From: Escherichia phage EP75
DNA length: 64,000 nucleotides
Strand: one strand, 5' to 3'
Sequence record: MG748547
Part shown: piece by piece, positions 51,502 to 55,131 of the stretch
Position numbering within the stretch: position 1 is the first letter of the stretch
How the letters are laid out: each line of letters opens with the position of its first letter
The notes under the pieces: model-generated
Database searches by the model: none
The model's input: the letters and a program-made list of their open reading frames with translations, nothing else
What the model was told of the DNA's origin: nothing
Position numbers and translations under genes: made by a program

Positions 51502-51916
51502 GCTATGTTAAACCATCGTGGGGATGGAAAGACTACTCACAGCAATTTCTGATAATGGGCGTTGGGAGAGTGCGTCGGGAATCGAACCCGAAATCGTCAG
51601 GACGCTGAAAGCTATTTGCATTTCACTTGCATATCCTGCGACTTTCTTAACTTCCTTAACCCCAGATTGTTATGAAGTCGGCATGCACACCTTCTTCATC
51701 TTCAGGAAGTCACACTCATAATTTGATTTGCGATGATGAACCCATTTCATCTGGGGTTGGGTGAGTGGGAGTTGAACCCACAACGCTTGGCTCGCTTTCC
51801 CTACCATTCAGGCCACCCAATTCCAGGAGGTAGAGCACCTTTGCCGTCGGTGCCCATATGCCAGTCTTCCGCCCTGGCCTCCACTCGCGTCTGGGATTTC
51901 CGCGATGATCGCAAAT

Positions 51917-52000
51917 TTGGTGTGAGTGGATGGATTTGAACCACCGCGCTGTTACGGGGAGATTTACAGTCTCCTGCATTCGACCGCTCTGCCACACTCA
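51917..52000 (-). tRNA. tRNA-Tyr (anticodon GTA), type II with long variable arm, CCA encoded
   Basis: Folded by eye: acceptor GTGAGTG/CACTCAC, D-stem GCA/TGC, anticodon stem GGAGA/TCTCC with loop CTGTAAA, T-arm GGTGG-TTCAAAT-CCATC, 3' ACCA. Confidence 0.75.
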
Positions 52001-52395
52001 CATTTAGTCTACCGCCGCGTGCTGGGCCACGCTTGAGGACATCGGCCATCCTTCCTCAGCTAATCCACGCGGCGGTAGATTTGGATCAGAGTGTACGGTG
52101 TAGCATTCCGCAGGGGTGCACCTACTGTAGCCCTTCCACTCTGAAATTGGTGGGTGTTACTTCCGTCGGGTTCAGATTCCGTTCGGCTATTGGACTTCGC
52201 TTCAAGAGCTTGTCGTTCGCGTACTTCGTGCTTACTTGCTTTCGTTCACACCCATTGTTTGTCGTCGGGTGGGGGATTCAAACCCCAATCTTTAGTTTGC
52301 GTTTCTTCAAAGCTATCATATGTTCACTTTGAATAATAAACTCCCCTGGACATCATAACAGGATCTCTATTTCATCCTGCAAGACCCGACATAAT

Positions 52396-52471
52396 ATGGC
52401 GACGATGACAGGACTTGAACCTGCGACATATGGATTAACAGTCCACCGTTCTACCGACTGAACTACATCGT
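52396..52471 (-). tRNA. tRNA-Asn (anticodon GTT), CCA encoded
   Basis: Acceptor GACGATG/CATCGTC, D-stem GTTC/GAAC, anticodon loop CTGTTAA, T-arm GCAGG-TTCAAGT-CCTGT, 3' GCCA. Confidence 0.8.
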
Positions 52472-52656
52472 CAAATTTTGTGAAGACCAAACGCCGGATC
52501 GTAACGGTCGTATGTCTTCGGGTGGCTGTCGTTCTTGATGCTTACCATGCGCAGATCATAAGACTGATTCTGCAGGACATACACCAACCACAGCTGTTTT
52601 ATAAATTCCATCATAAAGATACCTCACCAAATTTTATTGAACAACTGGTTTATTTA

Positions 52657-52732
52657 GTGGTGACCCTGGCTGGACTTGAACCAGCGACCAATCGATTATG
52701 AGTCGACTGCTCTAACCACTGAGCTACGGGGC
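52657..52732 (-). tRNA. tRNA with CAT anticodon (Met or Ile2), CCA encoded
   Basis: Acceptor GGCCCCG, D-arm GCTC-AGTGGTTA-GAGC, anticodon loop CTCATAA, T-arm GCTGG-TTCAAGT-CCAGC, 3' ACCA; one acceptor mismatch. Confidence 0.7.
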
Positions 52733-55131
52733 CAAAATTGGCGGGGTCTGAGGCTTTTCACCTCACCTGCTGGATTGGCCTCCAGCTGTTCTCTCTGGGG
52801 ACTCGCTGTCCGGACAGCTATCCCTTAAACTATCGCCCCATATTCAATTGCACCAGAGCATAATTACCGCTATACGACCACCCTCTCGGGCAGGTTGGTT
52901 CTGACCCAACGTCTCTCTGATGCGTTTTATTGTGTGCCCAATCAAGGACTGTCAACCTTTTATCCCGTTTGTGCATGATCAGTTCATGCATGCCTCTTGT
53001 GCGCCTCACGGCAACGCGCTTCTGTAGGTCATCGACTTGCACTGTAGTCTCACCACAGGCGTTTATTTTTCCAGGGCTTTCCACTTACAAGTCTTAACCA
53101 GATCGGGATACGGGCTTGTAAGATCGGATTGGACACAACTTTGATGGCTCTAGGACTAAAGATCCCGCGTCACCCATAGACTTGGTTTATAAAATCTAGA
53201 GCCATCAAAGTTGCAACCAATGTCGCAACTCGCACTTCAGCGTCTTCGTCTCGCTTCAGCACTTGTCCTCTACGTTCGGACCAAACGAGGCTGGCCGACA
53301 GAAACATAACACCACTCATCACTAGAGCGAGGATGTGGTTGATAGCCACGATGTTACGTCTCTGTCGTAGAGTGATCACACTTGTCAGGATGATCACTGT
53401 TTTGCGAACTTGAAAATACTGCGCCTGTCTCGGGTTTCCCCTTAGTTCGGCCTCTCATTGTTCGTCTGGTCAGGGAGCTACCCTTGATGACCAGCTTATT
53501 TTGAGATCTTCGCCAGCACCCACTAGTGTCTAGAATATGTAGGTGTCGAGGTCTGCAAGGCATTGCCCTATTTCATACAACGCTCTCTCAAGTGCGCAAA
53601 TCGAAGTTCTCTGGGCTTAACAGGTTCGACCCAACATGTTGTATATCGCCTAACTTGCTCATGGGACGGACACATCTGTGTACAGACCTTGAGGGTTAAA
53701 AGATATACCCAGAGAACTTCGATTTGCGTAGCCCTTCACTTGCCAAAGATCAGGGCTAATAACAAGACTTCGCTCACATCTTTGAGGACACTGCGCGGGA
53801 CTCGAACCCGCCATGAACATCTGGCGCCAAATGCTTCCACCTGTCAATGTCCTCAAAGATGTGGAGCCGTTTTAGGGAGTCGAACCCAAATGATTGGCCA
53901 GCGCTGACCTCACATCCCATCTGACTTAGGCAACCCACCTCTGCTACTCAGGAGCTTATCCCCTTTGGACAGTCAGATATAACGGCTTTGGGATTGGAGG
54001 AAGGACTCGAACCTTCTCATGTACGCTCCTGATTTCTCAGAAGTAGCCTGCTCCCATCGACCTATTAAGTACACGCTCCGCTCATTGTTCGGCGGGAGCT
54101 TATTAATCACACCCTCCCACCTATTGTTAGTGCGCCGAATTTTGTTATGAGGAATCGGAAGACCTCACTGACTTATAGGCTATTACGCCGCCATCAGAAC
54201 TTCGGAATCATTAGCAGTTATTTGCTTGGTCAGTTTCTAAAAACCCGCAAAGTCACGCACAACGAAAACGAAAACCTGTTTGAGTCCTAAACCTACCTGT
54301 CTTGGTCTCACATCGATATGAGTGGCCAGGACTCAAACAGCTTGCCGTTCAGTGAGTTAACTATACTTTGTAACCCGTTATTGATAAAACCTTTTATTTT
54401 GTTGGCGAGGGTGCGGAATCGAACCACACTTCTGAGCGCTACCCCGTGTCACCAATGCACCACCTCACCATCGATTTGCCGGAACTTACGCATCCGGCCT
54501 CGTCCTGTCGGTGTTCTTCTGAATCCGGGAAGATCAGCAGGAACTATGAATCAAGTTAATTCAACCAACAGGAATCCTCTTGTTGCCCTTTGACGCAACA
54601 TTATGAACCCTCTATGAAGACTCATAATGTTGTCGGCGTGATGGAGATTAGCGCCCCCGACCTCCCCTTATATGTTGGTGTCGACTTGCCAACAGGGTGC
54701 TCTCTGATTCTGAGCTAATCACGCTACAACAGGGAGTTTCGTTCTCCGACGGTCAAGTGCGTCCACTGACACCAGCGAGGTGGCTATTACGCCTCTATTC
54801 ACACAAGCCCCTGAGACTAGGGGTTAACTGGTTTTGGGCTGCAAACCCGACTCCCACTGTGTTATTTCCCTCATGTTTAATACTTTACCGCAGCCCAGCT
54901 AATTTGAAAAGTCCTCTCCCCTTTGAGCTACACTGCCCACAGCAGTGCGGACGAACCTTCACTCAAAACCGGATGCGCCGAAGTGGGCAACTGTTTACCG
55001 GACTGATCGGGTAGACCCAGGAGAGAGCAGGTAATCCCGATCAGGAGGATGAGGAGTAACATCATGTAAAACATAGTGTTCCCTCCCTTCCATGCAACTA
55101 ACTTTACTACAATTATTTATTGAATAAAGCG

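Follow-up and report, generated by a model that had tools for sequence, protein, structure and literature searches.

Organization of the locus

The region described here comprises positions 51502 to 55131 of a stretch of 64,000 nucleotides from Escherichia phage EP75 (sequence record MG748547); the window hereafter means that whole stretch. It contains three transfer RNA (tRNA) genes, about eight tRNA-like RNAs (TL1 to TL8), at least six other structured RNAs, a module with a tag frame like that of transfer-messenger RNA (tmRNA), here named M2b, and two short open reading frames (ORFs). Judged from sequence comparison, the region is most probably a conserved RNA-gene island of the Ackermannviridae, read from the minus strand between promoter-like sites at about 54.9 and 54.37 kb and a terminator at 51.49 kb, the transcripts of which would then be processed. 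All the features are located on the minus strand and are described 5' to 3' on that strand.

The source phage is placed in the Ackermannviridae (Kuttervirus, the ViI-like phages) through its annotated relatives. Salmonella phage Se-J shares 97.6% identity with segment 51400-55200, for which megablast gave matches in 320 phage records. Upstream of the island lies a gene for a 189-aa protein (phrog_3788), identified in 280 phage records. Downstream of this gene a stretch of 2.2-4.1 kb with hardly a credible ORF, or none, is retained in five genera, the genomes compared being Vi01, Klebsiella phage Menlow, Dickeya phage LIMEstone1, Shigella phage Ag3 and Serratia phage 2050H1. A search for related loci with the flanking 189-aa protein returned close relatives only. 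Homologues were collected from at least 37 loci, duplicates were dropped, and the sequences were aligned and consensus folds computed. Pairwise comparison of the genera gives a mosaic where conserved blocks alternate with lineage-specific segments; between genera the RNA blocks are 75-94% identical whereas the adjacent 189-aa protein is 40-70% identical. Literature searches turned up no account of the island, of an Ackermannviridae transcriptome or of tag peptides.

An earlier note on this DNA had described the region as poor in ORFs, with only three canonical tRNAs. The longest ORF within 51502-55131 does not exceed 114 aa, in agreement with that description, although the region is not free of ORFs since two short ones match PHROG families. 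The tRNAs were called with ARAGORN and with Infernal using Rfam model RF00005, and both identified exactly the same three: tRNA-Tyr (GTA) at 51918-52001 with 57 bits, tRNA-Asn (GTT) at 52397-52472 with 75 bits and a tRNA with anticodon CAT at 52658-52733 with 68 bits. Permissive Infernal thresholds added just two tRNA-Sec-like matches of 17 bits (TL3 and TL7), the threshold being 47 bits, so that the region is not resolved into ordinary tRNAs beyond these three. The CAT tRNA is labelled Met by ARAGORN, but it is best read as tRNA-Ile2 of the lysidine type because it is 92% identical to E. coli genes annotated as tRNA-Ile and because its homologue in phage P1, trnI (82% identity), is annotated as tRNA-Ile2 (CAT). 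P1 trnI is in turn 89% identical to E. coli ileX. Homologues of the CAT tRNA are labelled tRNA-Met in many phage records. Relatives hold extra true tRNAs in the same region, namely Ser, Gln, Arg and Asp.

The island is closed by an intrinsic terminator found by the terminator scan at 51482-51504, comprising a 10-bp stem followed by UCUUUUUG, and the site is also annotated as a terminator in Mutine and Menlow. Its upstream edge is marked by a 48-aa ORF (54928-55074) for a predicted membrane peptide, which corresponds to Vi01_178 (phrog_8415, E 2.5e-33) and is annotated in Vi01, Ag3, Menlow and the Serratia phage. A consensus scan gave a putative internal sigma-70-like promoter, TTATCA-16-TATAGT, at 54360-54387. 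Its hexamers are kept in Kuttervirus, Taipeivirus, Agtrevirus, Limestonevirus and Miltonvirus, the -35 hexamer being TTGTCA in most relatives. The second candidate promoter is weaker (TTCAAA-15-TAAAGT, 54882-54908); it was read from the sequence and is similar to the family motif (PMC7283392).

tRNA-like elements

The T-loop motif GTTCRANTC occurs 13 times in the window against 6.3 expected (both strands). Nine of the 13 copies fall in the 3.6-kb region, every one on the minus strand, where about 0.2 would be expected (shuffle mean, scaled). The six T-arms that the earlier note had named are all present, and a seventh was located at 54000-54016. They had been reported to lack a pairing acceptor stem, which turned out to be incorrect: most of them have a closing stem directly 3' of the T stem, and several of these stems covary. 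For most of the extra T-arms the next strand 3' pairs with sequence 60-150 nt upstream, mostly over 6-7 bp, as in GAGTGTG/CGCACTC, GTCGGGT/ACCCGAC, TTGGGTG/CACCCAA, GGTGAGG/CCTCGCC and GCCGTT/AACGGC, to which a 19-bp stem is added.

A layout of 7-bp acceptor, 5-bp T stem and 7-nt T-loop (TTCRANY) is shared by TL2, TL6, TL7 and TL8, with the deviations noted below. Exceptions are TL5 (19-bp stem), TL4 (6 bp and a weak T stem), TL3 (4-bp closing stem) and TL1 (non-canonical T-loop). An anticodon arm with 5-bp stem and 7-nt loop was identified in none of the eight elements, which have enlarged, truncated or tetraloop arms instead; they are therefore read as tRNA-like top halves with remodelled bodies. 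Judged from sequence, what they retain of a tRNA is its acceptor/T-arm half, and their D and anticodon arms appear enlarged or replaced. None of TL1 to TL8 passes the tRNA covariance model or ARAGORN, the three tRNAs alone doing so.

The best supported element is TL8 (51568-51717), a 150-nt RNA (z -3.8) that combines a 7-bp acceptor and a canonical T-arm with two enlarged arms and has the tail UCCCA. The consensus fold of 12 sequences has compensatory changes in 12 of its 37 pairs, acceptor and T stems included. In place of the acceptor GAGTGTG/CGCACTC, Ag3 has GGGCGTG/CGCGCTC and Menlow GGGTGCG/CGCACTC, and the T stem TCGGG/CCCGA varies to TCAGG/CCTGA or CTGGG/CCCGG. Of the two enlarged arms the second covaries and the first is invariant.

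TL1 (54636-54724) is an 89-nt RNA whose minimum-energy fold is a cloverleaf with the acceptor GCGTGAT/ATCACGC. Its D-arm is canonical (TAGCTCAG..GAGC), its 'anticodon' arm is extended and bears a 10-nt loop, and its T-loop is non-canonical. Five pairs of its consensus fold have compensatory changes, and it is called by neither ARAGORN nor RF00005. TL5 (53775-53863, z -6.1) is formed by a 19-bp closing stem around a hairpin and a canonical T-arm (GCGGG-TTCGAGT-CCCGC), with the compensatory change CTTTGAGG/CCTCAAAG to CTTAGAGG/CCTCTAAG. TL6 (52264-52390, 127 nt, z -2.5) has the acceptor GTCGGGT/ACCCGAC, two internal hairpins and the T-loop TTTGAAT, with a mismatch at the first T-stem pair; its T stem GGGG/CCCC is AGGG/CCCT in LIMEstone1. 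TL4 (53862-53986) is a cloverleaf-like RNA of 125 nt identified in the consensus fold. It is closed by the stem GCCGTT/AACGGC and has two arms, the first of them long, besides a weak T-arm (TTGGG-TTCGACT-CCCTA) and a U-CCA end that is encoded. One compensatory change was observed in it (GGTCA/TGGCC to GGTTA/TGACC), and a weak match to the tmRNA T-loop lies at 53875-53887.

TL3 (53989-54079) gave a weak tRNA-Sec match of 17.4 bits and is arranged as GGAG, a 7-bp stem, an insert, the T-arm (GAAGG-TTCGAGT-CCTTC), CTCC and the tail AAUCCCA, just 4 bp of the closing stem being supported (GGAG/CTCC). Compared with it, locus L012 has CAGGTGC/GCACCTG in place of the stem CGTGTAC/GTACATG and GGAGG/CCTCC as T stem. 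TL2 (54404-54469, 66 nt) lies just upstream of the internal promoter-like site and comprises GGTGAGG/CCTCGCC, a T-arm with a 6-bp stem (GTGTGG-TTCGATT-CCGCAC) and a truncated anticodon arm. Its slot is occupied in other genera by different tRNA-like elements, one of 140 nt in Vi01 and one of 92 nt called 'tRNA-Cys(aca)' in Serratia phages. The 'tRNA-Cys (ACA)' was found as an ARAGORN call in 2050H1 (L006 7080-7171) and as a GenBank annotation in Kevin (L039 1596-1685), with a length of 90-92 nt, a 9-nt T-loop and an oversized anticodon region; it is probably another tRNA-like RNA and not a decoding tRNA.

The weakest case is TL7 (51757-51820, 64 nt), with TTGGGTG/CACCCAA, the D-loop-like AATGGTA and a canonical T-arm, and without an anticodon stem; one extra T separates its T stem from the acceptor strand. 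Because it is present in close relatives and Ag3 only it has no covariation, and it may be a degenerate tRNA. An origin as a deleted tRNA-Ser was considered and rejected, since TL7 does not align to the tRNA-Ser of Vi01, Mutine, Ag3 or Menlow and Ag3 holds both.

Other structured RNAs

No other element of the island is as conserved as Block A (52933-53137), a 205-nt RNA of nine helices with the invariant single-stranded motifs GGAAAGCCCUGGAAAAAUAAAC, AUGAACUGAUCAU and CAAACGGGA. Long invariant single-stranded motifs are typical of RNAs with tertiary structure or with a bound ligand or protein. Among 25 distinct sequences 98.8% of the cells pair and 14 of the 50 pairs have compensatory changes; in controls where the 3' partners were slid by 1-3 columns no more than two compensatory pairs were left and 28-38% of the cells paired. 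Block A was identified in 272 phage records, by name nearly all Ackermannviridae, and has no Rfam match. Assignment of Block A and the other blocks to GOLLD, ROOL, 6S, a riboswitch or a ribozyme was likewise rejected for want of an Rfam match. Klebsiella phage cp21 (L038 3501-3726) contains a 16-nt tandem duplication (CCGTATCCCGGTCTGG) in the internal loop of helix 2, a loop that consequently tolerates insertion.

The second of these RNAs is B7 (53401-53600), a multi-branched RNA of 200 nt with a 14-bp closing stem, whose consensus fold of 13 sequences has compensatory changes in 16 of 56 pairs. It is adjoined by B8, a segment with several hairpins and approximate boundaries (53226-53400), with 4 compensatory and 10 one-sided changes. 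Several of the other structured RNAs are closed by stems of 14-21 bp. One of them is a 134-nt domain at 53595-53728 with a perfect 21-bp inverted repeat as closing stem (z -9.05) and four compensatory pairs relative to the Taipeivirus versions; it is a candidate RNase III substrate, on which cleavage would take place in the stem. Another candidate RNase III substrate is the long hairpin at 53128-53221, an inverted repeat with a stem of about 19-22 bp (z -7.4) and five compensatory pairs. A branched hairpin at 54267-54349 (stem of 15-22 bp, z -6.0), followed by the conserved motif GUUUUCGU, varies between GAGTCC/GGACTC and GGGCAC/GTGCTC. The three long hairpins of the earlier note were all recovered, with fold z-scores of -4.4 (52007-52080), -1.9 (52084-52145) and -7.4 (53128-53221), and 53595-53728, 53775-53863 and 54267-54349 are additional to them.

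The alignments also indicate the strand. The helices have G.U and A.C cells in ratios of 72:5 in Block A, 58:0 in TL8 and 64:2 in B7, and the consensus energy favours the minus strand in all three alignments, with a small margin in Block A (-55.7 against -51.4 on the opposite strand) and a larger one in B7 (-62 against -39). Since G.U is tolerated and A.C is not, and the energy is better on the minus strand, the structures are assigned to the minus-strand transcript.

The tmRNA-like module M2b

M2b (54125-54262) came to notice through distant BLAST matches in the N4-like phage Pollock and in an E. coli prophage. It comprises an A-rich leader, a reading frame, helix 5, hairpin H2 and pseudoknot PKa. 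The tag frame is located at 54180-54215 and reads GCT AAT GAT TCC GAA GTT CTG ATG GCG GCG (ANDSEVLMAA) followed by TAA TAG, the SsrA tag of E. coli being ANDENYALAA. The frame lacks a start codon and is preceded, 8 codons upstream, by an in-frame TAG. A degenerate M2b pattern collected 109 stretches from IMG/VR with 93 distinct contexts, and all 93 code for AND followed by five variable positions, then [A/V]A and a stop, with ANDDVVLMAA, ANDEQFLAVA, ANDDLMLMAA and ANDNTFLAVA as the principal variants. A looser anchor pattern gave 38 distinct tag sequences, of which 37 are exactly 10 codons long. The entropy at the three codon positions is 0.62/0.46/1.00, the third position being the most variable; the final Ala codon takes all four third bases and the remaining two frames are closed. 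The codon-position entropy, the nearly constant length and the closed frames together constitute a coding-type signature on the tag frame, beyond what conservation of RNA structure would give. M2b as the tail of a longer ORF was rejected, given the in-frame stop 8 codons upstream in most copies and the absence of an ATG, GTG or TTG start; Ag3, with an open GTG frame, is an exception.

The stop codons of the tag sit inside a hairpin, which is followed by H2 and then by H3 (54090-54120), a hairpin with the conserved 14-nt loop GGUGUGAUUAAUAA and a covarying stem (GGAG/CUCC, GCCC/GGGC). Two pseudoknots are formed by the loops. In PKa the H2 loop pairs with a downstream UCGG, as confirmed by the variants CCAG/CUGG and CCAA/UUGG, and in PKb the H3 loop pairs with a CAC just upstream, CAC/GUG being replaced by CAG/CUG in 8 sequences. 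The alignment of 44 M2b sequences has 95.4% of cells paired and compensatory changes in 16 of 23 pairs, against 33-48% of cells paired in slid controls. An upstream equivalent of PK1 was not identified, the two pseudoknot helices with compensatory changes both being downstream.

M2b thus resembles the tag template of a tmRNA minus the tRNA-like domain. The Rfam models tmRNA_permuted and beta_tmRNA align its resume-codon context, including the upstream AUAA(A)U, below threshold: 21.5-26.3 bits for the former (threshold 47) and 17 for the latter (threshold 84). No Rfam family reached threshold across 14 loci bearing M2b, and ARAGORN, which detects E. coli ssrA, found no tmRNA in the window or in 67 such loci. 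No tRNA-like domain closing M2b was found, the searches for one-piece and two-piece partners being negative. Within the window TL3 and TL4 follow M2b within 50-250 nt and end in C-CCA and U-CCA. Menlow, however, keeps M2b and has a deletion that takes out TL3, TL4 and the T-arm, and over half of the M2b contexts, as these were read, lack a T-arm within 400 nt. A G3.U70 pair occurs in no acceptor stem of the island, as the stems were read.

Three ways of linking the region to tmRNA were tried and rejected. A one-piece tmRNA closed by UCGUUUU (54269-54275) and AAAACGG (3' end of TL4) is contradicted by most relatives, which have UCGUUCU, and by Menlow, which lost TL3 and TL4; one perfect 7-mer partner per about 1 kb is expected by chance. 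For a two-piece tmRNA the search was for an acceptor strand complementary to the conserved 5' motif of M2b, and the T-arms up to 2.5 kb from 80 M2b copies gave just G.U-rich chance matches to ordinary tRNAs. Direct homology to ssrA was dismissed as well, the local alignment of the window or of the prophage segment to E. coli ssrA being within shuffle range. A trans-acting tRNA-like partner for M2b is possible but unsupported. Literature searches, tag strings included, turned up no description of M2b.

Occurrence in other phages and prophages

M2b was identified in 533 phage records and is almost never annotated. These phages comprise Ackermannviridae, N4-like Schitoviridae, siphoviruses of about 45 kb of T1-like appearance and Erwinia phiEa104-like phages, a partial version being present in Felix-O1-like phages. 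It was also found in 656 of 5426 complete E. coli genomes (12%), where most of the copies are on plasmids of 90-116 kb, taken to be P1-like, and 150 are on chromosomes. A collection of genome contigs holding one genome per species gave 2 matches to the M2b pattern.

Phage P1 carries an unannotated M2b in the leader of the ban operon (L142 ~385-590; NC_005856 ~68885-69090), with the tag ANDDLMMVAA, a stop and two hairpins. This copy immediately follows the annotated dicF-like region, and trnA and trnT lie downstream of it. The prophage of E. coli 55989 (L042 3900-4360) has M2b between the Q antiterminator and holin genes, flanked by two near-identical long hairpins (stems CACAACAGGTAAGAGCA / TGCTCTTATCGTTGTG). 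About 170 nt past its H3 hairpin there is a 59-nt mini tRNA-like domain with a D-loop analogue of the tmRNA type, which aligns to the Rfam tmRNA model from one end to the other, the middle part being deleted (20 bits, E 3e-6). The record of phage Pollock (L041 1562-1891) has four tRNAs on the GenBank strand opposite to the one given by ARAGORN and Rfam; by the latter they share the strand of M2b and lie about 600 nt upstream of it.

Klebsiella phage Menlow (L003 8364-8578) contains an STnc100 element (RF02076) with 53 bits, above the gathering score of 47. Its slot, absent from the window, lies between the equivalents of positions 53261 and 53235. STnc100 is a prophage small RNA (sRNA; bioRxiv 10.64898/2026.05.13.724894), so this match means that a lytic phage of the Ackermannviridae carries a known prophage sRNA family. 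In the window itself neither STnc100 nor DicF is matched in Rfam. Taken together these distributions suggest that the modules act as independent cassettes, the genera differing in the set that they hold and some modules being common to unrelated enterobacterial phages.

Comparison with known systems

The closest analogue is the tRNA cluster of phage T4, where the stable non-tRNA RNAs species 1 (rnaC) and species 2 (rnaD) lie beside tRNA genes of the same strand, as here. The likeness to the T4 stable RNAs that the earlier note had proposed holds for the architecture: in rnaC as in TL8 (51568-51717), which of all the elements comes nearest to it, a closing stem is followed by two large hairpins, a canonical T-arm (GGUUCGAAUCC type) and the 3' strand. 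The T4 cluster also holds a homing endonuclease gene, segB, as the Mutine island holds an HNH gene. Similarity of rnaC and rnaD to the island by blastn is limited to 15-18 nt of T-arm (E >=0.28). T4 has two such RNAs in about 260 nt, whereas the island has about eight tRNA-like and at least six other RNAs over 3.4 kb, and unlike the T4 cluster it has internal promoter-like sites and just three true tRNAs. The interpretation of the earlier note is right in spirit, the island being most probably a large relative of the T4 stable-RNA cluster.

M2b shares with tmRNA a start-less frame that goes from GCN AAY GAY (A-N-D) to hydrophobic-A-A or A-V-A and a stop and so comes close to the host tag, the A-rich AUAA(A)U before the resume codon, the stops inside a hairpin and the pseudoknots that follow. 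It differs in that no closing tRNA-like domain, G3.U70 acceptor or PK1 was found and in being below detection by Rfam and ARAGORN. The forms of tmRNA compared with it include the two-piece and permuted ones and the gene of mycobacteriophage DS6A that consists of the tRNA-like domain (TLD) only. A census of 2014 lists phage ssrA genes in mycobacteriophages and Bacillus phage G only (PMC4131195), none of them enterobacterial, whereas the phages with M2b are enterobacterial. A TLD-only RNA inhibits tmRNA according to work cited in that census (PMC4131195), so that decoy functions are plausible for both halves of tmRNA.

The sRNAs of lambdoid and P1 leaders (STnc100/PasD and DicF-like) are similar in position, M2b being located in like places in the prophage and in P1. 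The elements of the island are larger than these short base-pairing sRNAs of the Hfq type and are tRNA-like or multi-branched. GOLLD and ROOL are large non-coding RNAs whose function is not established and which are often found in phages and prophages beside tRNA genes. They have no Rfam match in the window even at E up to 10, and each is one large RNA whereas the island is an array of modules, 60-200 nt long, that are separable and differ in distribution.

The acceptor/T-arm half of a tRNA is recognised by RNase P, the CCA-adding enzyme, EF-Tu and some tRNA-directed toxins. The tRNA-like RNAs, which keep this recognised half, are for that reason candidate processing signals or decoys against tRNA-directed defences. 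There are precedents for mimicry of this kind. The mascRNA is an acceptor/T-arm mimic that does not decode and recruits RNase P and RNase Z to set RNA ends, and the t-elements of plant mitochondria do likewise (PMC1920247). These are organellar or eukaryotic whereas the TL elements are phage-borne and known here from their sequence. TL8, TL6 and TL4 are probably products and not mere punctuation, because their bodies are themselves conserved.

Interpretation of the island

Four RNA families at least are well supported by the comparative analysis (Block A, B7, the TL8 type and M2b), each with many compensatory pairs, and neither an Rfam match nor a literature description turned up for any of them. 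The idea that the region could hold new structured RNAs is accordingly backed by covariation. Four further properties were observed that the earlier note had not described: the modularity, the internal promoter-like sites, the sharing across the family and the tmRNA-like tag frame in one module. A conserved island of RNA genes, as it most probably is, would be expressed in the following way. Long minus-strand precursors would be transcribed from the promoter-like sites, host RNase P and 3'-end enzymes would cleave them at the tRNA-like tops, and RNase III would cleave at the stems of 19-21 bp. Stable small RNAs would result, by analogy with the T4 tRNA cluster, and the leading guesses for the tRNA-like ones are roles in stabilisation or as decoys.

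Several points weigh against this interpretation. The z-scores of TL2 (-0.5), TL3 (0.0) and TL4 (-0.16) are near those of shuffled sequences, and covariation gives little or no support to TL2, TL3, TL4 and TL7, which were recognised by sequence pattern alone. The compensatory counts represent few independent events, as close relatives dominate many of the alignments. Finally, small ORFs are called across the region by some annotators.

The last point is the basis of an alternative where the region chiefly codes for many very small proteins that are missed or inconsistently annotated. Mutine and Menlow annotate 6-10 hypothetical ORFs of 35-90 aa on both strands, and two short ORFs do match PHROG families. 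The annotated ORFs, however, vary by genome and strand, Vi01, Ag3 and the Serratia phage have none over most of the region, nothing is listed under Block A or M2b in most records, and the substitutions in the blocks tested obey base-pairing rules and not codon rules; the proposal is highly improbable. Decay of tRNA genes was also considered, in line with the degenerate tRNAs that the earlier note had envisaged. The region would then be a graveyard whose T-arms are remnants left by drift and whose remainder is neutral spacer, in keeping with the extra true tRNAs of the relatives, with TL7, which resembles a tRNA minus the anticodon arm and occurs in two lineages only, and with the swapping of TL2 for different elements among genera. 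Decay would not keep the acceptor, T-arm and enlarged-arm helices paired through compensatory changes across genera with 40-70% identity in the flanking protein, nor non-tRNA blocks more conserved than the adjacent protein gene, and TL7 is not homologous to the tRNA-Ser of the relatives. Decaying pseudogenes are thus very unlikely as an account of the region. There is also the chance that the inverted repeats work as DNA, as a replication origin, a packaging or recombination site or targets of homing endonucleases. Long near-perfect inverted repeats do exist, the blocks are mosaic, and HNH genes are inserted here in Mutine and listed under the match in SP1 and Se-G. Cruciform DNA, however, should accept neither G.T nor A.C, which disagrees with the strong asymmetry between G.U and A.C and with a consensus energy that favours one strand; one strand also holds all the T-loop motifs and tRNAs, and the M2b pseudoknots covary. 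A role at the DNA level is extremely unlikely.

The meaning of M2b is a separate question. A tentative reading, which we consider possible but short of probable, is that M2b represents a widespread, hitherto unannotated class of phage-borne tmRNA relatives that kept the tag template and pseudoknots and shed the tRNA-like domain, with members in Ackermannviridae, P1-like phage-plasmids, lambdoid prophages, N4-like phages and, by name and size, T1-like and Felix-O1-like phages. M2b would in that case serve as template for phage-specified degradation tags, aided by host factors or by a separate tRNA-like partner; alternatively it would be a decoy that disables host trans-translation. Under this reading the island would be a toolkit of tRNA and tmRNA mimics directed at the translation and ribosome-rescue machinery of the host. 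The competing proposal is that of a complete and functional phage tmRNA, of one or two pieces, made up of M2b and the neighbouring TL3 or TL4, which would tag host or phage proteins during infection. It accommodates the coding-type conservation of the tag frame, the pseudoknots after the tag as in tmRNA, the proximity of TL3 and TL4 with their CCA ends and the mini tRNA-like domain after M2b in the 55989 prophage. It is nevertheless unlikely in view of the ARAGORN result for the window and the 67 loci, the acceptor stems without G3.U70, the many contexts that lack a nearby T-arm and the Menlow deletion, to which are added the failure to find an acceptor piece complementary to the conserved 5' motif and the non-significant alignment to E. 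coli ssrA.

Phage tRNA clusters are usually listed as tRNAs alone, and here the non-tRNA part exceeds the tRNA part. Block A, B7, the TL8 type and M2b are concrete and testable new RNA families. M2b in particular is directly testable because it is present in model phages such as P1 and in 12% of the complete E. coli genomes. The standard model of trans-translation does not account for a start-less frame that is under coding-type selection and has no tRNA-like domain attached, and a tag template of this kind as widespread as M2b would surprise specialists. Phages of the Ackermannviridae are widely proposed for biocontrol and therapy, which makes unannotated RNA genes in them of practical interest.

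Smaller elements and insertions

The second short ORF codes for 47 aa (52471-52614; ORF list; phrog_6110, E 1.8e-21). Ahead of it are the motif CTAAATAAACC (52647-52657) and a Shine-Dalgarno sequence, and TTCAAT-N14-TATCTT (52621-52645) follows CTAAATAAACC on the 5' side of the ORF. A block of 36 nt upstream of the ORF is 91-94% identical across all the genera compared. The regulatory motifs described for phage EspM4VN are CTAAATAcCcc and TTCAAT[N14]TATAAT (PMC7283392), and the CTAAATAAACC block resembles both.

M12 (52740-52839) is a cloverleaf-like RNA of 100 nt identified in the consensus fold with 6 compensatory pairs. Its 3' end lies 6 nt upstream of the CAT tRNA, and it is 94% identical in Dickeya phage LIMEstone1. 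Salmonella phage Mutine (L001 3756-4211) has a gene for an HNH homing endonuclease in place of window positions 52736-52926 (a variable segment and M12), immediately upstream of the tRNA-Ile2 gene. HNH annotations lie likewise under the match in SP1 and Se-G.

Two small hairpins are also present. The one at 52008-52079 is an inverted repeat with a perfect 14-bp stem and a branched top (z -4.4), whose stem has compensatory changes. The other, M16 (52084-52143), is a 60-nt element with the 7-bp closing stem CAGAGTG/CACTCTG. The T5-like Salmonella phage misterkot (L143 701-762) contains an M16 homologue in an unannotated gap between tRNA-Lys and tRNA-Gly, where the closing stem is changed from CAGAGTG/CACTCTG to AAAGAGT/ACTCTTT by compensatory substitutions.

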